Positions 3,951 to 42,986 are shown, counted from the whole stretch's first letter. The stretch: 49,510 nt of DNA, filler included, from Stramenopiles sp. TOSAG23-2 (GCA_900128395.1; 2 parts of 2 records of this genome joined end to end with filler, not necessarily neighbours in it), one strand, 5' to 3'. A program made the numbers and translations. The notes: generated by a model from the sequence alone, not told the origin.

Positions 3951-6900
3951 ATGGCTACCGTTATACCAGTAGCAGATGATCCACATGGTAAATACAGTGA
4001 TAAAAACCACGGGATGTCGGACGCTCAGCACAAAGGTGCAAAAAACCATTGGAAACACGTAAAAGCCGAAGTAAAAGTTGGTATGTTTGCAAAAGCGACT
4101 AAACACAAACATAAAATTGCAGCGTGTCATTGCACTGTAATTGGTGTTGTTGTACTCATAGTTGTTTTAACTACTGCAGCTGTTGCAGCCGCAGTGTATA
4201 AAAACCAAGATAAACTATGTTCAAAGGGATATACAAAATTCTGCCCAAAACCAGAACCTAAAGCAAATACACAAGCAGGGAAAGCATTTCAATTTGGAAC
4301 AGTTTCAGTAATACCCCCAAAACACGATTCTAGGCGCCGACTATCAGCAAAGTTTTCGTTCACGCAAGCTATCGACAAATTAGCCCGTGATATAACGCTA
4401 CGTGGTGCAGCAAAAAGAAATGGACGGAAATTAGCTATTGACACAGCAACATTTGCAGAAGATTCTGATTATAATATGGCAACGACAACATTTTTCGTAT
4501 CGGAAGAATCTGCAGAAGCTATGAACATGGTTAGTATGATCATGTGCGACGTAGCACAATTGCGAGCGGCGTATTTTGTAAATCAAGGACCATACAAAGC
4601 TCAAGTAGATGAGAGTAAATGCACAGCCGATGGATCTATGATGGAATGGACCGTAGATGTAAAGACAGTTGGAGCAGCTGATTCAAGTAATACGTTAACA
4701 TGCGCTGGTGATAATGAACCTGCTGTAAATGAAAAAGGCATCGCCACCTTAACTTGTGGCTGGAATATTGACATTTGGTTCCAGACTGGAGATGGTATGC
4801 CAATCAATGTGCAAATGAAAATATGGAAACCTGTTACTATGTGCGAAACTAATTGTGAACCTTCCATGTCATCATGTACATGTGATCCTATTCCTAGGAA
4901 AGAACTACAATTTAAGGCAGGCCCTATGGATATGGGTGGTACTATGGTTAATATGATGGGAATTTTGCATCAAACTGAAAATGGAGAACGAGACGAATCT
5001 ATTAAATTTGGCCAATTTATGTCAATGGGGGATCAATCCATGACTCAAGGTGCTATACATTGGTAAGTATGCCACACACACACACACAATCTCTTTCTTT
5101 TTTGTTTTTAATCACATATCACTAACATGAACTAATATATATATATATATATTAAATTTATAATATAAAATATAAACATATATATATATATAATAAAGTG
5201 AGTACAATACTGGTACAGGTGCTGGAAAAGTTTGGAGTCAATCAACTGAAGGAGGACCAGGGTCTAATCCAACAACGTTCAAATTAGCTTTTGATGGTAC
5301 GTATGTAAAAAAAAGACAAAGATGGAACTGCACAATGTCTTGACATGTCCGACCCAAAGGAAGTTGGAAGTCAATATCAATTATACGATAATACTGGCAA
5401 AGCTGTTATTTTTGAAGAAGGTTTTCCAATCGAAGCAGAATCCGCAGACGGTACAAAATACGAAGCCTGGGCAGGTTATCATGGTTTGCATGTACATAGC
5501 AGAGGCGGTGAGGATTCGGAGGCACAATCGCTATTTGCCGATGGCAAGAAAGTGAATAAAATCAATTATGACGCCGCCTCCAGCAGAACGCCGTATACAT
5601 TAAAAGTTGACAACGGGCGTTTAATGAAAGTATCACGAAAAACAATAACATTAGGGGAGTTGACAGGTGTTACCATGCAAGTTGGTTGGGGTAGTGATGT
5701 GCCAAGAATTATGTTTAATGGAACAAAATTACTGAAAGTTGGTGCTATGGGTGGCATGTGTTTTGCACAAAGCCAAAATGGGCCCCCTACGCTTGTGAAT
5801 GGACCAACAGACCAGTTCAGTTGTATGTGTCAAGGTAGATCATCTGGCCAATTATGGGGTGGGTCAAATATGTGGATGGAAACTTTTCAAGATATATCCA
5901 ATCCAACACCATTCGAAGTTTCTACTGAAGCATTTCCATGGGGCATAGATGTTTCTGCTGGGGAAGGATCGAGTCGGTTTCAAGGAAGAATGAAATTAGA
6001 AGTTGATCAAATAGTAAGAATGTGGATTGCAGGACCATCTTATCAGGGCGGGGCATTTATTGAAGGCCAGAATGTTACTCAAGGAAATGCAGTTGGTGTA
6101 GTTTATACATCAACCCCACAATCATTTACCGGTATTACAAAGAACTATAATCATGCTGAGCAGAGGAAGTCATATGACTGCAGTGGCGCAAAACAAGATT
6201 ATTCGGGGATGATAGGTGACTCTGTGTATTCAGGAACAAAATTGATCCAAGATGCAAGTGGAGCAACGGGTATAGTTAAAGGTCATGGTCATTTTGGATG
6301 GCGAATACAATTTGAAACGACATCAGGAACTTTCGTCGCTAATCAACCTATAAGAATGGTCGATCCAATAGAATTGTCTGGGATGTTTGAGCACTTCAGT
6401 ATAAATGGTTCTTTCACTCCAACTAGTATTAGTCAGCAAGGGCATGAATTACTAGTGAAAGTTACATCGGGAACATTTGCACAAGGTTATTACGATGCTT
6501 CTGCAAGTCAATATGTACCTGCTGCCGATATATATGTTGCTGGAATTAATCAAAATGATTTGTGGGGTTTTCATAGGGAGCAAGGTAAACTTAAGAACCA
6601 ACCAAATGCAAATACAGAGATTACATATACGACTAGAAAATTAGTATTCCCAGATGATACAGTTCCAGCATTGAAATGTTATGACCGTTGTCCAAAAGCT
6701 ACAGGTCTTGCAAGTAGCTGTTCCAGCAATGAGGATTGTTACGAAGGAGAGCCTGGTATTCTAGCAGATGTGAATGTAGACAGTCAAGGTAGTGGATGCG
6801 TTCAGGAAAATCTAGCTTTTGCCATAACAAAAGGTAATGGTGCGTTTACCGGTGCAAGTATTACAGGAACAGTTGATAGCAATGGTAAATTAGTCTCCGC

Positions 6901-7798
6901 TGAAGTGGAAACTTTTGGTAATGGATGTACCAATGACGACACCATTAGCGTTACTGTTAGTGGATGTACAAGTGCACCTAGTGTTTCAGCAAGTTGCAGG
7001 ACAGGAACAGATGATTCTGCGACATATGGACAAGCAAAAACTTATACTTATGATGGTTATTCCTTGAAAGATGGAAATGGTGCTAGTGTAACTGTAGCTG
7101 CAGCCGAAAATTCGCAGTTGAGTTCCATTCACTCAGGTATTCTTTTTGAGTTAACAAACGACGCAAAAGTTAAAGGACAGTGCGAGCATGACACTAGCCA
7201 AGTTTGCTACCATGATCTTCGTGAAAAATTGGATACGTATTATGAGTGGGAAACACGTTCAGCATGGTCAAAACGTGTCAGTTTGATCGATGAGGATGCT
7301 GGAACTTCCGTGAAGTTTGATCAGCCAATGGCAGTTTCATACACACATTCCGGTACAGAATCGAACAGCGGCAAAAATTATCATGGTACTAAAATTTTAC
7401 TATCATATGAAAATGAATTACGCGGATTTCCACAATTGTGTCTCGACAAGACCACTTTACAGAAAGCAGATTGTGCACCGGATTGGTCCGGTATAACAAG
7501 AAATATGCCTGATTTTACCGTTCCAGATAATGCGATTTTTACAAATACAGATACTGGAACAGAATATGTTGCAAAAGCAGGGGAAGTTGAACAAATCATG
7601 AAAATGGCAAGTAGCGCAGCATCTTGTTCCAGTCTTGATACGGCAACAGTACCTGCACCAGTGACAATTGATTTATATCAGTCATTTGAACTTGGTTCCA
7701 AGCCTGATTTATCTGACAAACCAACAGTAGTCTTCAGCGGCATGCTTCTTAAAGAGCTGGAAGAAATTGAAGCAGAAAAAGCAGCTGCATCTGAATAA
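3951..7798 (+). CDS. Large (~1236 aa) Cys/Gly/Thr-rich type II membrane-anchored or secreted protein; exon 1 3951-5062, intron 5063-5198, exon 2 5199-7798 with an apparent 1-nt frameshift in the A8 run at 5307-5314
   Basis: ORFs 3951-5066 and 5345-7798 are joined by GTAAGT donor at 5063, ACTAAC branch near 5121 and AAG acceptor at 5198. Exon 2 reads CEYNTGTGAGKVWSQ...KLAFDGTYVKK, then continues DKDGTAQCLDMSDPK only after removing one A. N-terminal TM segment VIGVVVLIVVLTTAAVAAAVY. Confidence 0.75.
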
Positions 7799-8369: not shown

Positions 8370-8473
8370 GTCAGCAAATGCACATGTTTTTAAATACAAA
8401 AAATGTCTTTTGATTTTTTACAAAAGATTACCTTTTTTTGTACAAACTATTTTTTTAATGTGCAATGCATCAT
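8370..8473 (-). promoter_or_regulatory. Eukaryotic SECIS element (type II-like, extended apical stem) in the 3'UTR of the selenoprotein gene
   Basis: Minus strand reads A-UGAU (8473-8469), GCAUUGCACAUU, AAAAAAA, ~65 nt apical stem, AUGUGCAUUUGC, UGAC (8373-8370). Ten Watson-Crick pairs in helix II; unpaired As lie 12 nt above the GA/GA quartet. Located about 60 nt after the TAA stop. Confidence 0.75.
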
Positions 8474-8534
8474 TTCTAATACATCATGTACATATGTACA
8501 CAATTAATTATATATTATTTAAATTAATTCATAT

Positions 8535-9275
8535 TTATTGAATCATGCAAGGCAAGACACGTCGTTTGCCACAGCATAATGCATGTCCTATACTATAACC
8601 TTTTTCATTCGGTCTACTATCAATTTTAATTGGATTTCCCGCATCGTATGCATCAACTACCATTGCCATATGTTTCACCGCATCATTTGGTTTAGGTCTT
8701 GGAGTATGATTTTTACCACCCCACGAATATAATGATTTTGCTGAAGAAAACGTTGAGTCTTCAACAGATTGTTTTTGTAATAATATGATAGCTGGTTGAG
8801 TCATGCCATGTGGATAATCATATTCAGGATGATTTGGATCAAAACCAACGGCGGGTCTATTTGTTTTATCAGGGTGCCACGCAGACGGTACAATATCAAT
8901 GTCAGCAAGTTTCAAATCATTTAAAACATTTGCCAATTTATTTGTTGTGTCTGTTAAAATGTCATATGATAAGTTCCATGTATTTCTAGCCATTTCAACA
9001 TGTTCATCTTTTTGTCCTAAAATTACAAATGGTTTGATGCTTTTGCTTTCAAATAAATTATTAGAATCACCAAAATCACCAGCCCACCGACGGCACATCG
9101 GTCACCAATTTCCCCTAACGTATAATAATAAAACATGAGACTCCTTATTAGCATTTATAACAATCTCCATGGGATCTTTTATTGGCACTCCAACATGCGA
9201 TGATTCTTCCACTGCACCATTTTCAGTGACGTCACTAGCAATAACATAATTTTTCTCTATTACTTCTGATGTCAT
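8535..9275 (-). CDS. Selenoprotein of AhpC/TSA (peroxiredoxin-like, thioredoxin fold) type with UxxC motif, 246 aa, Sec58, C-terminal CaaX
   Basis: Frame is open from ATG 9275 (MTSEVIEKNY...HVLLLYVRGNW), through a single TGA at 9104-9102, into the tracked ORF (PMCRRW...). RGxW-[C/U]-PxC is the AhpC/TSA-type redox motif. Downstream YPHGMTQPAIILL...LYSW...RP fits the family. SECIS-like element in the 3'UTR. Confidence 0.9.
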
Positions 9276-9903
9276 TCTAAATATTTTTTCCTAATTAGAT
9301 ATTATATATATATATATACAATAATAATGTCGATAGTATTATTCCTCGTATATATTATCCTGGGAGACTGATTTAGAATCTCTCTCATATATGAATACAT
9401 ACAGTATTAATACTTACACACATGTTGTTGTTTCCGATTTCCGATCTACTATATATCTATACTAGGTGTTATCTAAAAGATCTTAGATCGATCGATCTTC
9501 TTCTATCCAATATCCAATCCCGCCAGCAAAAAACATAATAATTATATTGTAATTTACCATATAAGTACATAATATACCAATATGATAGGGATACATTTTC
9601 ACTTAAAATGATGAAAAATCCCTTTTTTCCAATTTTTCCAAAATAATTTCTTCGAACTATTAATAATTCCGTCGAACCCATCATCATCCCATCATACCAT
9701 CATACCACCAAGAAGAAGAGAAGAAGTAGATATATATATAGAATGTAGAAAGTGATAGTCAATATCATATTTTACAAAAGACAAACATTATAACCAAAAC
9801 TATTAAACAGGAATATTACGATAATAATAACACCACAAAAAGATATCACCCCCCCCCCTTACGCCATTCATAGATATATAATATATATTCAATTTGATAT
9901 ATC

Positions 9904-10812
9904 ATGGACATACCATTAAATAAAGAAATTGAAGCAGTTGGAACCTGGAATACATTTCCACAACCAATTACAACACGTGGGGAAGCAACTATATTTCATA
10001 CCATCGATCCAAATGCACCACCTGGAAATAGAGGTGCTGGTGGTGGTGTATCTGGACCGATCCTAGCAGCAATGATGCAAGAATCGGCAACATTAGCAAC
10101 GATAACTGCTTTACGACATACAGAACAAATTATGGGTACGCTAGAAATTAATATAAATTATATACGACGTGCATCTGGAAAACAAATATTTGCCAAGGCA
10201 AATGTATTAAAAAAAGGTAAAACCGTATCATTTGTCGAAGTTGATATATATAATGATGAGGAACGTTTAGTATGCAATGGGCATGTGATCATTGGTATTA
10301 AATTATCAGGTGGATACGTAAAACCAAATAAATTTGAACATGAAAATTTTGAAAATATATTAAATATGTTTTGGAAAAGCAATGAACATTATGGATATGA
10401 ATTGAAATTAATGGAAAAGAAACGTGGTTATTTAAAATTTGAATTAAATATTGGTCAAGAAAGTGCAAATGTTGATTTGGATAATTTAGCACAAATATTA
10501 CCTGGTGCACATGATTTTGCATGTGTCAACTGCGTTAGTACAATGGTTGATTTTGAAAATGGTGAATATATGAATGGTACAATAAGTTTAAATTTATCTT
10601 ATTTAAAACCATATTTAAAATATGTTGATTTAAAAAGTGATAATAAAAAAATTGAAATTATATCAAAAGTTGAAAAAAAATTAAAACCAGAGGAACAAAT
10701 TGCATTTGCTAGTTGTGAAATTATATCAAATAATGAAGTATTAGCAACTGGACGTATTGTTTATAGCGTAGCAAAAGAAAAAGAAGAATATAATGGTGCA
10801 TTTTCATTGTAG
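9904..10812 (+). CDS. Double hotdog-fold acyl-CoA thioesterase (PaaI-like), 302 aa
   Basis: Two repeats of hotdog motifs: GGVSGPILAAMMQE...GTLEININYIRRA...ANVLKKGKTVSFVEVDIYNDEERLVCNG, and GAHDFAC...GTISLNLSYLKP...IAFASCEIISNNEVLATGR. Confidence 0.85.
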   Translation: MDIPLNKEIEAVGTWNTFPQPITTRGEATIFHTIDPNAPPGNRGAGGGVSGPILAAMMQESATLATITALRHTEQIMGTLEININYIRRASGKQIFAKANVLKKGKTVSFVEVDIYNDEERLVCNGHVIIGIKLSGGYVKPNKFEHENFENILNMFWKSNEHYGYELKLMEKKRGYLKFELNIGQESANVDLDNLAQILPGAHDFACVNCVSTMVDFENGEYMNGTISLNLSYLKPYLKYVDLKSDNKKIEIISKVEKKLKPEEQIAFASCEIISNNEVLATGRIVYSVAKEKEEYNGAFSL

Positions 10813-10999
10813 TATTTATGTACATATGTAATGTTTATAATATGATGGATTATTAGAAAACGTTTTTTTTGTCGAACCAAGTCATCATACATATATATAT
10901 AATAATGATGGATTATGGAGTTGAACGTGTGAAATTTTATACAATAAAAAAGTACGTAGTATTTGGTGATTTTCAATAATGTGCGTGCAGCTGACCCAT

Positions 11000-11200
11000 C
11001 ATTTTAGGTTTGTATTTACGAGTATTTCAGGAGAATTTTTAAACATAAGATATATCTACATTCTACATAGACATTGTATCTCTCCAACTCATTGAAAAAA
11101 AAAATCATTTTAGGTTTGTATTTACGAGTATTTCAGGAGAATTTTTAAACATAAGATACATCTACATAGATATTGTATCTCTCCAACTCATGAAAAAAAA
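11000..11200. repeat. Imperfect tandem duplication, unit ~100 bp
   Basis: cattttaggtttgtatttacgagtatttcaggagaatttttaaacataagata...ctccaactca occurs at ~11000 and ~11106. Confidence 0.9.
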
Positions 11201-11212
11201 TCAAAAATCAAA

Positions 11213-11299
11213 CGCAGCAAAGGTGGACTTGAACCACTATTTAATGAAAAATCTATAGGTTTGAAGCCTACACTCCAGACCCCTGAAGCTCATCGCTGC
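11213..11299 (-). tRNA. tRNA-Sec: tRNA-Sec (UCA), copy 1, 87 nt
   Basis: GCAGCGATGAGCTTCAGGGGTCTGGAGTGTAGGCTTCAAACCTATAGATTTTTCATTAAATAGTGGTTCAAGTCCACCTTTGCTGCG. 9-bp acceptor stem with U.U pair, long D-stem with 4-nt loop, anticodon loop CU-UCA-AA (11264-11262), long variable arm, 4-bp T-stem GUGG/CCAC, discriminator G. This is the eukaryotic 9/4 tRNA-Sec fold. Followed by T-runs (Pol III terminator). Confidence 0.97.
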
Positions 11300-11391
11300 C
11301 CATTTATAATTATTTCTCAATGGATATATATGCAATACTATTTGCATGTTATTAGGAAATGTAAATTTTATGTATATATAAGAAAATCAAA

Positions 11392-11478
11392 CGCAGCAAA
11401 GGTGGACTTGAACCACTATTTAATGAAAAATCTATAGGTTTGAAGCCTACACTCCAGACCCCTGAAGCTCATCGCTGC
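11392..11478 (-). tRNA. tRNA-Sec: tRNA-Sec (UCA), copy 2, identical to copy 1
   Basis: Same 87-nt sequence shifted by 179 bp; followed by TTTGATTTT. Confidence 0.95.
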
Positions 11479-11932
11479 CCATTTATAATTATTTCTCAAT
11501 GGATATATATGCAATACTATTTGCATGTTATTAGGAAATGTAAATTTTATGTATATATAAGAAATGAGGATTTAACAGGGACATAGCATCTAGCATTCAC
11601 ATACCACAGGAATTATCCATTTCAATCATTTATAATGGCACAGTATTGGATTTCGTGGATTTCATAATTTGGTACCAAAGTATGTATATTTTCGGTTATA
11701 ACTACTTTTTTAAAATCATATCTATCCTTAGATGTAATATTATTTCCGAAAGATTCTCAAAACGTTTCCTCCCAGCTTTTGAGTGAGATTTTGATGTTTT
11801 TAAACAACGGGAATGGAACTATTGCTATATTGACTAAAGTATGTATATTTTCGAATACTACTACTTTATAAAATAAAATCAATATAGCAATTTCCTATTA
11901 TTTCCGAAATAATTCCATAAAAAGCGAGGAGT

Positions 11933-12139
11933 TTTGATGAACAGAAGATTAAAGTGAGGGGAGGAATCCATTCAATAAGTCACTGTATGTGTGTGTTCGT
12001 GATGAATGACTCTTTCTCTAACATTTTTATTTTATTTATATATATACATATATACATGTATTTAGGAACGTTTGATGAACAGAAGATTAAAGTGAGGGGA
12101 GGAATCCATTCAATAAGTCACTGTACGTGTGTGTTCGTG
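11933..12139. repeat. Near-identical ~68-bp direct repeat pair
   Basis: tttgatgaacagaagattaaagtgaggggaggaatccattcaataagtcactgta(t/c)gtgtgtgttcgtg at ~11933 and ~12071. Confidence 0.9.
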
Positions 12140-13217: not shown

Positions 13218-13806
13218 TCGTGCGATTGAGTATTGAGCATATATTATGCATACTTAACACGAGAAGTGGTAAAATTATATTATAACTTATAACATATTAG
13301 ATTTTAAACATCTCATTTAAATAAATTATACAAATAATATTCCATATTCCAGTACGTTTTCTGTCACACAGGTGTCGTCTCATATTACTTTAACACGAGA
13401 AGTGTAAAATTATTATAACTTAGATTTTAACCAATATAGTTAAAGATTTTATTTTACTCATATGATAATGTTATATACACTTGTACGATACGAACCGTCG
13501 TAGAATATTATTCTCTTGCGATTGAGTATTGAGCATATATATTACTTAACACGAGAAGTGGTAAAATTATATATTATAACTTATAGATTTTAAACATCTC
13601 ATTTAAATAAATTATATACAAATAATATTCCATATTCCAGTACGTTTTCTGTCACACAGGTGTCGTCTCTCCTCTTATATATTTTATTTTTTTTCTATGA
13701 CACACTCCTATATACAAATAATATTCCATATTCCAGTACGTTTTCTGTCACACAGGTGTCGTCTCTCCTCTTATATATTTTATTTTTTTTCTATGACACA
13801 CTCCTA
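13218..13806. repeat. Complex nested local duplications between convergent genes
   Basis: tgcgattgagtattgagcat...ttaacacgagaagtggtaaaatt occurs twice (~13221, ~13517); acaaataatattccatattccagtacgttttctgtcacacaggtgtcgtctc occurs three times (~13330, ~13618, ~13714). Confidence 0.9.
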
Positions 13807-13817
13807 ATACATGCACG

Positions 13818-13887: not shown

Positions 13888-16800
13888 TTAAAACAATGTA
13901 CTACCAAACGAAACTGAACGTTCTTTTAATACAGTCGTATGTCCCCCATCACCACTACTAGTAGTAGTATTACCATCATCAACGTTTTTCTTCTTCTTAT
14001 CATTATTATTATTATTATTATTATTCTTTGACATTACATTTAATTCATCTTCAATTTCAGTTAAAACTTTTAATATATAATCAATGGAAGGACGCATATT
14101 TTGATCATGTGACCAACATGCTTTTGCTAATTCGCAATATTGTGAATACATTATCGAACGTATTTTATCACTCATTGTCGTATCACTACCATCATCATTT
14201 TGTTTTTCTGCATCTGTTTCAAAGATTATATTATCTTTAAATGTTGGACGTAATTTGTGTTCACATACTTTTGTCATTAAATCAATAATCGATGTAGTGT
14301 CCTCACTGAATGGCACACCACGTTCCTAAATACATGTATATATGTATATATATAAATAAAATAAAAATGTTAGAGAAAGAGTCATTCAACACAATAATAA
14401 ATCGATTTATAAAATAAACCTACCATAATTTCCCACATGACCAAACCAAATGCATAAATATCAATACGTTGATCATAAAATCGACCAACCATTACTTCTG
14501 GTGCAATCCATGCTGGTGAACCACACCTCGTAGACAACAAGAAACTTTTCTCCAATGTTGAGCTTAAACCAAAATCACATAATCGTACGGATAAATTTTC
14601 AATACTTGTATTGATATTTTTACGCAAATATTCAGTTAATAATTCATTTGAATTAATTTTTTGTGTTTCGGTTTTATTACTACTGTTATTGCCTTGTTCA
14701 TCATCATCATCATCATCACTACTACAACTGCTACTGCTACTACTACTATCATCTTTGTTACTATCCTCCTCCTCGTCATCATTGCCATCATTTAATTTTT
14801 TCTTCATAAATCGTTGTAATTGAAGATTTTTAAAAATATGTTTATGTGGATGATCGTCTACTTTCTTCTTAGCCCTTTTTTTATATCCAATAATAATATT
14901 TGCAGTTTTTAAATCACGATGTACAACAACAGGTTCTTTATTATGTAAATATTTTAAACCGTTTGCAATATCTTTTGCAATTTTAATTTTCAATTTAAAG
15001 GATAATTGGATTTTATCGTTTGATAAAATATCACGTAAACATCCATATTTCATATATTTACTAACTAGCCAAACTTCATTTTGTGTTGCAACCACACCAA
15101 CAATTTCAACTACATTTGGATGTACTAATGATTGCATTAATTCAATTTCTTTTTGCATCAATGCAAGCTCACGTTCACTTTTTTCAGTATGTGTTCTACG
15201 ATAACATTTTATTGCAACTTTCATGCCTCTAACTTTGCACTTATAGGTAGTACATGCATGGCCAGATGATAAAATTTGTTTTTTCTTTAAAACAGGTATT
15301 TCCCATCTTTCAAGTGGTTTAATATTATTTTTTTTCACTTTTGTATCATATGGTAACGATAATTGCGATTCTTGATCTGTACTATTATTATTATTATTAT
15401 CATTATTATTGCTGATATTATTGTCGCTACTATTAATCAAATATGATGAAGAAGAAGATCTTGTAGCAGCACTAGTAAGAATACTACTAGATGTGTTGAT
15501 AGAATAATTATTATCATTTTGCTGTATTTGATGATTTTGTGATAATGGTTGTGCTAACTTTGTTTCTGTATTATTATTACGTAACCACATATTTGTAGCT
15601 TTTCTATTTTTTTGCCATTGTTGCAATTTTAAAATCAATGTTTGTACCATATTTTTTTTAACCGGTTTAATTAAATAATCATCTGCACCAAGTTCCATGG
15701 CTTTATTGATATCGTTTAATTCTTCCACAACGCTGACTAGTATGATTGGAATATGTAATAATAATATATTACTTTTAACTTGTTGGATAAATTCAATACC
15801 ATTGACACCTGGCATATTTTTATCACACATAATTAAATCATATTTGTATTGATTTTCAAGCAATTCTTGCAATGCATCATTAGCACTTGAACAACATTTT
15901 ACGACGTATCCACAAACTTCCAATACATGTCGTAATGCTAAACGATGGAATGCACTATCATCAATTACTAGTACAGTAATATCCGAAGTTTCTTTATATA
16001 CTTTAGTTGGTATTTCTCGTTCTGGAGTTTGTCGTGTTAGAATATTATCAACCACTTGTATTTCTACCACTGATGATGATGATGCTTGCGCTATGGTTAC
16101 TGGAACAACTATTGACGACGGTGAAGGTTGTTGAATAGTATTTGCAACATGTGGCATATTATTGTTACTATTGTTTCTACTATTGCTACCGCTACTCATA
16201 CTACTACTACTACTACTACTACTAACACCGCTATTACTGTTAATAATACTATTGTTACTAATCCCCATCACATTATTATTTGTAGTACCATTAAACGTTT
16301 CTTTTGTTTCTACGTTGTTATTATTATAATTTGTTGTGTGAAGAACATTTGCTATTATGCAACTGCTATTATTAATGTTATTTGCATGTGCGGATTGAAG
16401 ATTTAATTTAATATCTTCAAGACTGCTATTACTATATAACAATTTATTCGTATCTTCCAGACTACTAGTACTACTGCCAGTACTGCCACTACTATGAACT
16501 CTTTGTTTTTGTTTTTGCTGGACCTTTTCTTTCAATATATGTAAATCATATTTTGTTTGCAATTTTGTTAACATATCTAATGCAAGTGGTCGTTTATTTA
16601 TCGTTTTATCGATACTTTTTTGAATTAAATCAATAAAAAATTGTGGTGATTTTGTAGAGTTACTTGATGGCATCTCTGGGCGTTCCCCAATTTTATATTT
16701 ATATGGTACAACTCTAGGATCATGATATGTTTGTTCTGAAAAAGGTAACCTCCGTGTTAACATTTCCCAAAAGACAATTCCAACACTAAATATATCACAT

Positions 16801-18104
16801 CGCATTAATTCATTACCTGTAAACACTTTATTTTGTTTAAATCGTTCTGGGCATGTCCAATATAAACTAAATTCTTCTTTTTCTTTGTCATTCATTGGTG
16901 GTAACATATGGTGATGGTTGCTGTCGCCATTGTTTGTTGCTGCTGGTGGTAATACAACATTTGGGTTTGCGATCATAGTTGCTAATGTACTCTTTTTCGT
17001 TGTTGTTGTTGAAGACGTCGCCGTCGTCGTTGACCATATGTCATTTTTCATTTTATCTTTTGATCGATCCCATTCAAATGAATGTGTAAAATCAATTAAT
17101 TTACCATGATGATGTGTATGATCTAACATAATATTTGGTGATTTAATATCACCATGTATGATGATAATATTGTTTTTTTTCACCCGTCTTTGTTGATTGT
17201 CGTTGCTGCTGCTGCTGCTGCTGTTGTTGTTGTTGTTGTCCCTATTATTATTAGTAGTAGTATCATTATTTATGATATTATCATGATAAAAATAATTATG
17301 AAGGTACGTAATTGCTTGTAAGATATCAATACTAATTTTCAATGTTTGGCCATAAAAATCTAAATCAGGTAATTTTTTATTATTTAATCTATCATATAAT
17401 GTACCACCATTTAAATATTCTAAACATATGTATTTATTTACGTTGTTTTTTAATACATTTGAATTGCTTGACATTTTTTCAATCGATAATCCTAGAAACG
17501 TAATGATATTTGGATGTCGAATACGTTTAAAAAATTTCAATTCATTTTGCAATTGTGAATTTTTAGAATGTGTTTTCATGACAATCGGTGTACCATTCCA
17601 TTTTACTTTATATACGGTTGATAATGATGTATGTGATAAAATATATTTCGTTTTGTAATCAATATTATGTAATATTGGTGAGGTAGTAGTATGTGGTTGT
17701 TGTAAAATCGATGTTGTTGTATTGTTGTCGTCATTGTCGTTTTTATTCCTGTTGGAAGTAAAAGTCTTCTTCGAGTTGTATTTATCATTTTGATTGACAT
17801 GTAAACTTGATGTTTTGACGGTATTTAATTTACCTAACGTTGTTGCTGTTGTTGTTATAGATGGTATAGAATTTGATAACGATGACGATGTTGGCATTGA
17901 CAATATATTATTATTATTACTTGTTGTAATATTATTATTATTATTATTATTGCTTGTAACTATTTGGTGATTTATTATATCATCATTATTTTGACATATA
18001 TTAGTTTGGATATTATCATGATTCTGTGCAGAACTATTATAATTATTATTATTATTATTATTATTATTATTGGATGTATTCAACGTACTATTTTTGCAAC
18101 CCAT
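13888..18104 (-). CDS. Dual TKL-type kinase with central response-regulator receiver domain (kinase-REC-kinase), ~1372 aa; exon 18104-14424, intron 14423-14326, exon 14325-13888
   Basis: Kinase 1: HPNII, HGDIKSPN, DFT, WTCPE, DIFSVG. REC: VLVIDD...DLIMCDKNMPGVNG...ILVS...GADDYLIKP. Kinase 2: VAIK, HRDLKTAN, DFG, WIAPE, DIYAFG. GTAGGT donor and TTTAG acceptor join WEIM|ERGVPF in frame. N-terminus MGCKNS. Confidence 0.92.
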
Positions 18105-22006: not shown

Positions 22007-22580
22007 TATATATAATAATAACGTGTAGCAGTATGGGAATTTGTGGAAAACTGATTTAATCCATATTTGGTATTATTTCGGATAATACTAGAAAGTAGAC
22101 GTTAAAATTGACAGACAGTGTTTTTATACATACAAGACAAATATATGTGGGAAGGTGGGAGAAGGGAATGGTAGATATGTGTGATCTATATCTATCCGTT
22201 TGGAATATTGTACATATATAGAACAATAGAGAGAATAAAACGTTATCAGTATTTCTCTGATATATATAATAATAACGTGTAGCAGTATGGGAATTTGTGG
22301 AAAACTGATTTAATCAATATTTGGTATTATTTCGTATAATACTAGAAAGTAGACGTTAAAATTGACTGACAGTGTTTTTATACATACAAGACAAATAAAA
22401 AATAAATATGTGGGAAGGTGGGAAGGGAATGGTAGATATGTGATCTATATGTATCCGTCTAGATTATTGTACATATATAGAACAATAGAGAGAATAAAAC
22501 GTTATCAGTATTTCTCTGTCTTATTGTACATATATAGAACAATAGAGAGAATAAAACGTTATCAGTATTTCTCTGTCTGT
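22007..22580. repeat. Imperfect ~253-bp tandem duplication plus an additional ~58-bp sub-duplication
   Basis: tatatataataataacgtgtagcagtatgggaatttgtggaaaactg... occurs at ~22007 and ~22261; attgtacatatatagaacaatagagagaataaaacgttatcagtatttctctg occurs three times. Confidence 0.9.
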
Positions 22581-23898: not shown

Positions 23899-23967
23899 GC
23901 TCTGGAAAATATGGAGACACAGACGACATTTATTAAAAAGTGACCCTGTGAGATATGTGAGAACTGA

Positions 23968-24133
23968 TGATACACTGACACCTGACATTGTGAAAGAGTA
24001 ATTAAGATTTCAAAGTTCAAAAAAAGTAACTTTTAAGAGACTGATACACACATGATACACTGACACCTGACATTGTGAAAGAGTAATTAAGATTTCAAAG
24101 TTCAAAAGTAACTTTTAAGAGACTGATACACAC
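23968..24133. repeat. ~83-bp tandem duplication
   Basis: tgatacactgacacctgacattgtgaaagagtaattaagatttcaaagttcaaaa...gtaacttttaagagactgatacacaca occurs twice. Confidence 0.9.
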
Positions 24134-24318
24134 ATATTACACACATCACACATGGCACCACGAACCACGAGAGAGGAGAGAGAAATGCGGTACTCAACAA
24201 CGCCCCATCATGATGCCACATCAGAGAGAGAGGAGAGACAAATGTTCGTGTGTGAGAGAGAAAGACAGAAAATGTACACAATATTGTATAATTTATAATA
24301 AAGAATAAAGTAAGAGTG

Positions 24319-24808
24319 TCAATCATTTAAATCACCATTACCTCCTCCTACATGTCTACCATTTCCATCATAACAATTTGCTTTTCCACCTTTTGAACGT
24401 ATAAGATCAATGATCTCTTGTTTAATTGGACTATCATTATANNNNNNNNNNNNNNNNNNNNNNNNNNNNNNNNNNNNNNNNNNNNNNNNNNNNNNNNNNN
24501 NNNNNNNNNNNNNNNNNNNNNNNNNNNNNNNNNNNNNNNNNNNNNNNNNNNNNNNNNNNNNNNNNNNNNNNNNNNNNNNNNNNNNNNNNNNNNNNNNNNN
24601 NNNNNNNNNNNNNNNNNNNNNNNTTATTAATACTATCAAGAGACATATGAGTTAATAACAATTCAATCAACTCAGTAGTCGTTCTGTTATATGCTGCTAA
24701 ATGTAATGCATTCCCTCCATCACTACGTGCAATATTAGGATCAGCTTCACCTCGTTCAATTAAATATTTAACTATGTGGAAATGTTCTTTGTATGTAGCT
24801 GCCATTAA
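24319..24808 (-). CDS. Ankyrin-repeat protein (partial, interrupted by assembly gaps)
   Basis: LMAATYKEHFHIVKYLIERGEADPNIARSDGGNALHLAAYN...LIELLL are ankyrin consensus repeats; C-terminus IKQEIIDLIRSKGGKAN...GNGDLND. N-runs lie within and upstream. Confidence 0.85.
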
Positions 24809-24908
24809 NNNNNNNNNNNNNNNNNNNNNNNNNNNNNNNNNNNNNNNNNNNNTTAATTAATTAANNNNNNNNNNNNNNNNNNNNNNNNNNNNNNNNNNNN
24901 NNNNNNNN
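24442..24908. other. Three scaffold gaps (N-runs) within the ankyrin gene
   Basis: N-runs at 24442-24623, 24809-24852 and 24864-24908. Confidence 0.99.
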
Positions 24909-41345: not shown

Positions 41346-42595
41346 TTACCATCCATCACAAATTTCCCAACTATCCATAACTGCTTGTTCTTCAATTTTA
41401 CGATCATTATCATCCGTCTCAATAATATGAATTTTTCTGTGCTGATGTGTAGATGCACAACTGTGATGAGGTAGTATTTCCAGTATCATACCGATTGGAA
41501 AATTATCAAAATTAATTGGTGATCCATCACTTGTTTCTACTTCGCCAGCTTCTTGCTTTAAAACTTTTATACATAATTTGTGTTTTTCAGTACCTGCAAT
41601 ACGCCCATAATGATTGCTTTCCCCTTGTGCGCTGCAACCTGTCCATCCACAATCTATTAGCAACATATTTTGTTTCGGGTATTTCCCAATTACTCTAGTC
41701 AGTACACGGACAGCAATATCATCCAATGTACATGATCCTAAATCTGCTTGCATGCAATCGTAGTATATAAAATTTCCAGGATGTATTGCATCTATCTCAT
41801 TTAGATGCGATGGCATTATACTGCAAGTTGGAGTGCTTCCAACGGTTATCATTACATCAGACATGCCAATACCAATACCAAAATGAGATCGTATTTTATT
41901 TGCAAAATTGACAACAGCATCCCTTTCGATTTCAGCAATTGCTTTTATTTCATTCTTTGATTTCCCTCCATAAGAGTGTCCACCCTTTGGATGGAGCGTA
42001 GTGAAGTGTGTTAGAGGGGATATCTTTTTAAGGGTTAAGAAATTATACTTACGTGCGTATAGATTCCTCCAAAAATCATTTTGTCTTTGCCGGCATTGTA
42101 TAATGCAGCTATTAGTTCCAAACTGTCTGGATCTTTTGGATCTATTCCATCTCTGTGGTATCCACAATCTACCATGACCCAAACATGCCATGGTTTAATA
42201 TGATTTGGATGGGAAAAATTAATTAAGGCACTTATCATTTCCATTGAATCTACCAAAATCGAAAATTTATCCATTTTGTTATTTAGCTTCATTGCATCCA
42301 TAAATTTATCAGGGGTAATTGGAACAGCATATAAAATATCATCGAATCCACCATTGCAAAAGAAATTCACTTCTGCCAATGTTGAACAGACAATACCATT
42401 TCTACGACCTCCTGTTTGTATCATTGCGCCTTGGATCGTTTTGTGTGTTTTTACATGAGGTGTCAGCTTTACATTGAATTTGTCTGCCTGTTTTAACATT
42501 TGATATGCATTGTTTTTAATTTTATTTAAATACCCAATTAAACACGGTGTTCTTAATTCGGATATTGATTTTGCTGTGGACGATAATGAAGCCAT
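41346..42595 (-). CDS. D-serine dehydratase / D-threonine aldolase-like fold-type III PLP enzyme (Dsd1 family), 393 aa; exon 42595-42053, intron 42052-41985, exon 41984-41346
   Basis: LRTP, PHVKTHKT (PLP lysine), STLAE, DDILYAVP, VDCGYHRDG, YTH|GGHSY (in-frame across a 68-nt GTAAGT...CTAAC...AAG intron), VGSTPT, HPGNFIYYD, QEAG, PHHSC (Zn ligands). Confidence 0.93.
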
Positions 42596-42628
42596 GATAA
42601 TGTGGTTTATATTTTCAATTGTACAATA

Positions 42629-42669
<41 letters not shown>

Positions 42670-42986
42670 TACGTATATTAGCTTCTTATATTTATTGGCA
42701 ACAACATACGCGGGTAATTTCTTCAAGGAGTAATCATACATGTGGTCTATTATAATACATGCTGTACCTGGTATGTATATTTTTAATAAAAGAAGAGGGT
42801 TTTTTTTTTTTAAGGTTAGCTAGCCCAGCTAGCCCGGCTAGCCAGGAGTGCATGACTGTGTGTGATGATGAGGAGAGATGAGAATTGCACAACAATTCAA
42901 TCAATGAAAGATTATAATATATTTATCATATTGGTTCAAGAAGATAGTATATAAGTATATAACAAAGAAATCATCAATTGTTAAGC

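Follow-up and report, generated by a model that had tools for sequence, protein, structure and literature searches.

The window, as the whole 49,510-nt stretch of DNA analysed here is called (Stramenopiles sp. TOSAG23-2, GCA_900128395.1), carries on its minus strand two identical genes for the selenocysteine tRNA (tRNA-Sec) and, downstream of them, a gene whose reading frame is interrupted by a TGA and which appears to encode a selenocysteine (Sec)-containing redoxin. An earlier note on this DNA had described two tRNA-Sec(UCA) genes and a UGA-containing gene on the same strand, about 2 kb apart and separated by one thioesterase gene, and had left their vicinity between chance in a compact genome and a functional or co-inherited selenium locus. 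The description is borne out in each of its parts (Table 1). The distance from the 3′ end of tRNA-Sec copy 1 to the start codon of the selenoprotein gene is 1937 nt, the tRNA genes lie upstream, and the thioesterase, on the plus strand, is the only convincing gene in between.

Table 1. Features of the region of the tRNA-Sec and selenoprotein genes; positions are counted from the first letter of the window.
Feature	Position	Strand	Basis
Selenocysteine insertion sequence (SECIS)-like hairpin in the 3′ untranslated region (3′UTR), beginning 61 nt past the stop codon	8371-8473	minus	Minimum free energy (MFE) folding and conservation of the arms
Gene for a selenoprotein of 246 aa, an AhpC/TSA-type redoxin of thioredoxin fold with W-U-P-M-C site	8535-9275	minus	Translation, Pfam, AlphaFold, Foldseek
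In-frame TGA, putatively read as Sec (U58)	9102-9104	minus	Conservation and Cys at the same column in homologues
Divergent intergenic spacer between the selenoprotein and thioesterase genes, 628 nt	9276-9903		Open reading frame (ORF) list
Hotdog-fold (4HBT) thioesterase, 302 aa	9904-10812	plus	Pfam PF03061 (8e-12); NCBIfam TIGR00369 (6.3e-12)
Further tandem duplication immediately 3′ of tRNA copy 1 (two copies of period 106, 90% matches)	10998-11200		Tandem Repeats Finder (TRF) and repeat search
Tandem duplication of two identical 179-nt units (11204-11382 and 11383-11561)	11204-11561		Repeat search and TRF (2.0 copies, 100% matches)
tRNA-Sec copy 1, 87 nt, anticodon UCA	11213-11299	minus	ARAGORN and Rfam RF01852
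tRNA-Sec copy 2, identical in sequence to copy 1	11392-11478	minus	ARAGORN and Rfam RF01852

The frame of the selenoprotein gene contains a single in-frame TGA, in the residue context Y-V-R-G-N-W-U-P-M-C-R-R-W. A metagenome scan gave 158 pattern matches, from which three relatives were obtained (L001, L002 and L003, with 99, 65 and 68% amino acid identity, respectively), and both the TGA and the flank upstream of it (...YVRGNW) are kept in all three. Furthermore, in seven out of seven homologues of the Cys form a cysteine, within W-C-P-x-C, is aligned with U58. The database homologues found by a word-indexed search are all truncated (6/6), and five of the six start at a Met located two codons past the TGA, as would be the case when gene callers stop at a Sec codon; in an exhaustive search, a distant homologue (P0013, 35% identity) likewise begins after the TGA and a separate database protein of 57 aa matches residues 1-57. 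In the environmental contigs X4 (8458-9230) and X13 (8935-9137) the TGA bases are unchanged, and base 9099, adjacent to the codon, is changed in what is read as a synonymous substitution, Pro to Pro. Among 15 frames of the window listed as interrupted by one or two TGAs, only the one considered here was judged by eye to be selenoprotein-like: in three of the others the TGA falls 4-17 codons before the next stop, as in ordinary TGA-terminated genes, and the remaining ones are of low complexity or lie across known genes read in a different frame (also judged by eye). On the conservation of the codon and the pairing of Sec with Cys, from which the identity of U58 is inferred, 8535-9275 is a genuine selenoprotein gene.

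The product is the Sec form of a thioredoxin-fold redoxin, a known kind of protein. The Pfam domain PF00578 (AhpC/TSA) spans the TGA, covering residues 42-118 with 32 bits against a cut-off of 26 (E 1.3e-7), and the AlphaFold model, built on an alignment of 19 sequences, reaches a pLDDT (predicted local distance difference test score) of 73 overall and of 80-94 in the residue blocks between 31 and 130. U58 is modelled directly N-terminal to a helix formed by residues 59-69, and this position, together with the predicted fold, would fit a redox CxxC site. The top Foldseek matches of the model are BCP/PrxQ peroxiredoxins, AhpC and ResA (E about 1e-5 to 1e-6); a search of the PDB with the selenoprotein sequence gave one insignificant match (E 0.55). 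In peroxiredoxins (Prx/BCP) the peroxidatic Cys lies in the motif P-x-x-x-T/S-x-x-C. A peroxiredoxin proper was ruled out, since no Thr or Ser is present three residues before U58 and the site, a W-C-x-x-C, belongs to the thioredoxin-like type, for which thiol-disulfide oxidoreductase or thiol-dependent peroxidase chemistry is to be expected; from its sequence, then, the selenoprotein probably acts as a thiol-disulfide oxidoreductase or a thiol peroxidase. Membership in the SelL-related family (NCBIfam NF040769) was also rejected, the score being 16.3 bits against a cut-off of 120 (E 0.006).

Outside the domain, the family shares a Y-P-H-G-M-x-Q-P block and the protein has a C-terminal extension of about 100 residues. 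In nine sequences, distant ones included (the window at 8535-8600 on the minus strand, P0002-P0006, P0009, P0013 and P0024), a pair of cysteines and basic residues are followed by a CaaX-like end (C-M/A/V-I-Q, C-V-V-M or C-S-I-M). The CaaX box is a lipid-anchoring motif, and MIEN1, a prenylated protein of thioredoxin fold, offers an analogue; the tail thus suggests that the selenoprotein may be anchored to lipids through prenyl or palmitoyl groups. The family is a small one: among 1.84 billion, the exhaustive search finds 23 representatives at E<=1e-3.

The 3′UTR of the gene can be folded into a structure with the layout of a SECIS element. An AUGA opens it and is followed by a helix of 10-11 pairs, in which there is a small internal mismatch; beyond an A-rich internal loop comes a long apical hairpin, and the returning strand of the helix then leads to a GA. 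When the window, L001 and L002 are folded without constraint, the MFE structure of each one contains the helix with AUGA and GA at its flanks, and the two arms, inclusive of AUGA and GA, are the sole well-conserved blocks of the 3′UTR between the window and L002, in which the apical part is shorter and of different sequence. The putative element is termed SECIS-like only.

Two tRNA genes, and no more, are reported by ARAGORN in the whole window, both for tRNA-Sec(UCA) and both on the minus strand, and the Rfam model RF01852 matches each of them with 64.4 bits (gathering score 47, E 6e-11); apart from RF01852, no family is at or above its gathering score in the Rfam scan of the window. Eukaryotic tRNA-Sec is characterized by the UCA anticodon, a helix of 13 bp formed by the acceptor and T stems (9/4), a D stem of 6 bp with a loop of 4 nt, a long variable arm and a G at position 73 (G73). 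When the 87 nt are read by hand, the acceptor stem has nine positions, namely eight pairs and one U.U, the D stem has 6/6 pairs, including one G.U, and a loop of 4 nt, the anticodon stem has 6 bp with UCA in the middle of the loop, the variable arm is long, the T stem has 4/4 pairs and the last base, the discriminator, is a G. These are the features of the eukaryotic 9/4 form. G73 also serves as a criterion for tRNA-Sec in PMC5330540, which agrees in part with the list of features. By two methods, therefore, the pair is eukaryotic tRNA-Sec, a known kind of gene that is here tandemly doubled.

Both copies are preceded by a TATA-like run at -31 and by ATGCAAAT at -48, and contain a B-box-like motif at position 65; on the 3′ side, runs of five and eight T lie within 20 nt of copy 1, and a run of four T alone follows copy 2. 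Vertebrate tRNA-Sec genes are described with a TATA box at -30 that is used together with upstream elements and a B box (PMC2943599), and the similar layout of the flanks is compatible with RNA polymerase III (Pol III) as the transcribing enzyme, by which, on this analogy, the pair is probably transcribed.

The two copies are arranged head-to-tail, 92 nt apart, in a tandem duplication in which each unit takes in the tRNA-Sec sequence and, on either side, 9 nt of its 3′ and 83 nt of its 5′ flank. The intergenic DNA of the window is unusually rich in two-copy tandem duplications, whose units measure 57-179 nt. TRF reports five such arrays in the 49.5 kb (periods 57-179 nt), and the four besides that of tRNA-Sec, at 10998-11200, 13613-13811, 22464-22578 and 23967-24142, have periods of 57-106 nt and 90-100% matches; the repeat search adds two interrupted duplications, at 11674-11873 and 11933-12139, the latter being present as a single copy in another sequencing run, X13 (joint 11959 to 12101). 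Duplications of this type are a common and polymorphic trait of the intergenic DNA of this genome and, for this reason, the tRNA-Sec pair is most simply explained as one of them, most likely generated by a recent tandem duplication of 179 nt. The contigs derived from the runs are too short to distinguish one from two 179-nt units, so that they neither support nor reject the duplication.

Of the locus, the three related contigs cover part of the selenoprotein gene and its downstream side. L001, L002 and L003 all begin inside the selenoprotein gene, with the tRNA side outside their extent, and no tRNA is present in the 0.5-3.3 kb downstream that these contigs cover; in L002, the downstream neighbour gene differs from that of the window. 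At L003:516-1067, the redoxin frame stops resembling the family beyond about residue 214 and continues as an ORF of leucine-rich-repeat-like sequence; a chimeric contig, a fusion of genes or an intron could account for this. Viral contigs, scanned with the alignment of the proteins and for a tRNA-Sec pattern of 29 nt, returned nothing, and among the contigs derived from the runs no listed piece spans from the selenoprotein gene to the tRNAs. A contig of X4 has 68 nt of tRNA-Sec, with two differences, beside 403 nt unlike the window, and could come from a relative with a diverged flank; it is uninformative on linkage, as is the lack of cover of the tRNA region in X13 and X17. Many of the X1 joints have sides of only 20-22 letters, resembling low-complexity matches.

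How often such a vicinity would arise at random can be roughly estimated. Selenoproteomes comprise from 14 to 96 members, with 16-44 in diatoms (PMC7539508, PMC2375036). With these sizes, taken from the literature, and with assumed genome sizes and gene numbers, the chance that any one point has a selenoprotein gene at a distance of up to 2 kb is about 0.25-1%, and the chance that there is one among the four nearest genes is about 0.3-3%.

The likely explanation of the locus is that two ordinary components of the Sec system are adjacent without forming a unit. Each tRNA-Sec copy, having its own AT-rich promoter-like upstream region and a downstream T-run, would be transcribed by Pol III, and the selenoprotein gene would be an RNA polymerase II (Pol II) gene for a redoxin with Sec as the first residue of the catalytic W-C-x-x-C, in which the hairpin past the stop codon would aid the recoding of UGA. 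Since tRNA-Sec would act in trans on every selenoprotein mRNA, appears to have its own promoter and terminators and is separated from the redoxin by an unrelated gene transcribed in the opposite direction, no cis-coupling is apparent between the two genes, which would use different polymerases. The spacing of 1.9 kb would most likely be a coincidence in a genome with about one gene per 2.2 kb, and it appears highly probable that the parts are neighbours by chance rather than members of a functional locus. A coincidence becomes plausible, however, only because the case was noticed post hoc among very many windows.

Several results weigh against this explanation or against single steps of it. 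The Rfam SECIS models give no match at E<=10, either in the whole window or in the two 3′UTRs alone, and a permissive SECIS-like pattern is unspecific, with 90 matches on the two strands of the window, among which the candidate has an unremarkable score of 7.5; the support for the SECIS being mixed, the call of the selenoprotein rests mainly on the conservation of the UGA, the Cys homologues and the domain and fold. The promoter-like motifs of the tRNA-Sec copies lie in DNA of 70% A+T, where they are weak evidence and may be due to chance, and the perfect identity of the two units, flanks included, is a pattern that PMC5330540 links to assembly artefacts. Finally, the a priori chance of the observed proximity is low, 0.25-3% per genome, which is uncomfortable as long as a single genome is considered.

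Two alternatives concern the parts themselves. If the TGA at 9102-9104 were a true stop, 8535-9098 and 9105-9275 would be separate or degenerate ORFs and no selenoprotein would be encoded. The splitting of all the database homologues at this point by gene callers, together with the silence of Rfam on a SECIS, would agree with such a reading, which is nevertheless very improbable: protein conservation extends upstream of the TGA in all three related loci, down to 65% identity, the TGA falls exactly at the first Cys of the W-C-x-x-C of all seven Cys forms, the Pfam domain and the predicted fold cross it, and the genome carries tRNA-Sec. It is less remote, although still unlikely, that the second tRNA-Sec copy is an assembly artefact, in the form of a collapsed or expanded repeat or of an amplification chimera, and that only one gene is real. 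Besides the identity of the units just mentioned, this would be in line with the size of the three best-matching runs, which are tiny (10-21 million letters), the source apparently deriving from small runs of the amplified-DNA type, and with the three runs of N in the window (24442-24623, 24809-24852 and 24865-24908, 270 bases in total), which mark it as a scaffolded draft. However, other two-copy arrays of the window are imperfect (90%, 94% and 99%), as real duplications of differing age would be, and the presence or absence of one duplication in different runs indicates that the process is biological.

The third alternative concerns the meaning of the vicinity, and is that of a functional or co-inherited selenium locus, in which selection keeps a dosage-doubled tRNA-Sec linked to a Sec-dependent redoxin, possibly by virtue of shared chromatin or regulation under selenium or oxidative stress, or of the joint gain and loss of the trait. 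The rarity of such a proximity at random speaks for it, as do the duplication of tRNA-Sec and the location of the tRNAs upstream of the selenoprotein gene on the same strand, and unusual genomic coupling of tRNA-Sec would have precedent in the clusters of selenoprotein genes with each other in algae, one of which is syntenic across species (PMC7539508), and in the tRNA-Sec genes of Trypanosoma brucei, which are located among protein genes and co-transcribed by Pol II (PMC2943599). We nonetheless consider it unlikely. An unrelated gene, that of the thioesterase, intervenes on the opposite strand, co-transcription is not expected of copies that have each a TATA-like element, a B-box-like motif and a T-run terminator, and a tRNA that would serve all selenoproteins in trans draws no evident benefit in cis. 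Moreover, no other gene of the Sec machinery or for a selenoprotein was recognised in the 49.5 kb, L002 has another gene as the neighbour on the downstream side, and duplications similar to that of tRNA-Sec are common in the nearby intergenic DNA. The features examined provide no positive evidence for a locus of this kind. In its fullest form, that of a eukaryotic selenium locus in which a doubled tRNA-Sec is tightly linked to a lineage-restricted, probably lipid-anchored Sec-redoxin and inherited or regulated together with it in uncultured marine picoeukaryotes, the idea is slightly more doubtful still.

In prokaryotic sel clusters, selC lies beside selA, selB or selD and/or a selenoprotein operon. 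The window resembles them in that some 2 kb at most separate tRNA-Sec from a client selenoprotein gene on the same strand, but differs in several respects, since it is eukaryotic nuclear DNA with separate promoters and an opposite-strand gene in between, its SECIS-like element is in the 3′UTR and not within the ORF, and no gene of the selA/selB/selD type or of the eukaryotic Sec machinery is found among the 23 window proteins scanned. Were the eukaryotic selenium locus true, these selC-selenoprotein neighbourhoods would for the first time have a counterpart in eukaryotes. Similarly, a conserved linkage would be the first sign that eukaryotes organise the decoding and the use of Sec as a genomic unit, and would offer a handle on how the dosage of tRNA-Sec is adjusted to the needs of marine protists whose selenoproteomes are large.

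The doubling of tRNA-Sec has precedents in other eukaryotes. The single copy is the norm and multi-copy cases are known (PMC5330540, PMC2695483), in agreement with the earlier note, according to which tRNA-Sec is usually single- or low-copy. Multiple or identical copies are reported in zebrafish, in Fragilariopsis cylindrus, which has several, and in the trypanosomes T. brucei and T. cruzi (PMC5330540, PMC2695483, PMC2943599), with two copies in T. brucei and eight in T. cruzi (PMC2695483). Like these, the genes described here have the UCA anticodon, the long variable arm, the 6-bp D stem and G73, occur in more than one copy and occupy short intergenic sites; unlike them, they are arranged head-to-tail in a 179-nt unit. 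In T. brucei, the two identical copies are about 3.8 kb apart, between protein genes, and are transcribed by Pol II (PMC2943599), whereas the window copies keep a B-box-like motif, a TATA-like run and T-run terminators, which argues for Pol III rather than for read-through by Pol II. No selenoprotein gene is reported as a neighbour of the multi-copy genes in the available text of the three papers (PMC5330540, PMC2695483, PMC2943599), and a search of the full-text literature, with subscription journals and supplements outside its range, found no description of a eukaryotic cluster of tRNA-Sec with a selenoprotein gene. The window adds to this picture an uncultured eukaryote in which the tRNA-Sec genes form a tandem pair.

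Selenoproteins comparable to the redoxin have been described in marine algae and protists under different names, namely the AhpC/TSA-type ‘AhpC_b’ with UxxC of Thalassiosira oceanica, ‘TlpA’, ‘thioredoxin-fold protein’ and ‘peroxiredoxin-like’ (PMC7539508, PMC2375036); in the former of the two papers, as far as its accessible text goes, selenoprotein genes are clustered with each other and a clustering with tRNA-Sec is not described. The window protein shares with these AhpC/TSA-type selenoproteins the domain, a UxxC instead of the peroxiredoxin motif, the origin from a marine unicellular eukaryote and the existence of Cys forms elsewhere. Compared with AhpC_b by description only, its family, which has the Y-P-H-G-M-x-Q-P block and the CaaX-like tail, may be AhpC_b itself. 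The thioredoxin fold and the W-C/U-x-x-C site are also common to the SelL-related (NF040769) and ResA/TlpA proteins, to which the window protein is linked by a weak sequence similarity in the former case (E 0.006, 16 bits) and by structural similarity in that of ResA; the score, far under the cut-off of 120 bits, excludes it from the SelL-related family and, unlike ResA-type proteins, it lacks a signal peptide and a membrane anchor of their kind and carries the C-terminal extension of roughly 100 residues. What is added is a small marine family of Sec-containing W-U-x-x-C redoxins with a CaaX-like tail, and the correction of a gene split by callers at a UGA where all the database homologues are truncated.

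The window is almost fully contained in three very small sequencing runs of one organism, and a share of about 0.4-0.6 of it is found in marine and seawater metagenomes from several studies and of about 0.2 in marine metatranscriptomes; the organism is thus an uncultured and widespread marine eukaryote. Contigs from a polyA metatranscriptome cover 8612-8927, in the selenoprotein gene, and 9903-10168 and 10588-10738, in the thioesterase gene, and are a weak hint of the expression of both, given that DNA can occur in such libraries. These contigs lie outside tRNA-Sec, and polyA RNA is uninformative for a small non-polyadenylated RNA.

As for the rest of the region, the spacer between the selenoprotein and thioesterase genes contains a lone minus-strand ORF of 72 aa (9469-9687), judged by eye to be non-coding, and the thioesterase has no known link to selenium. 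The whole window has a GC content of about 30%, with no compositional island at the locus, and 22 ORFs of at least 150 aa, roughly one per 2.2 kb. A giant-virus origin, suggested by the GC of 30% and by the lack of obvious introns, was rejected on account of the nuclear-pore, trafficking and kelch genes; in fact, the Pfam families present (Nup93/Nic96, PX/GOLD, kelch, MORN and a protein kinase with a receiver domain) identify the sequence as eukaryotic nuclear DNA. No Pfam family of the Sec machinery (SPS2, SepSecS, PSTK, SBP2, eEFSec), as recognised by name, appears among the 23 scanned proteins, 10 of which have no Pfam match at all. Elsewhere in the window, a minus-strand gene at 14382-18104 encodes a protein of 1240 aa in which protein kinase domains are combined with a response-regulator receiver domain, an uncommon architecture in eukaryotes. 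At 41346-42670, also on the minus strand, alanine-racemase-N and D-serine-dehydratase domains are found on overlapping ORFs (42035-42670 and 41346-42191), which probably belong to a single gene that contains either a frameshift or a small intron. Lastly, a plus-strand ORF of 817 aa at 5345-7798, convergent to the selenoprotein gene, has no Pfam match and a GC of 0.39 against the 0.30 of the window.

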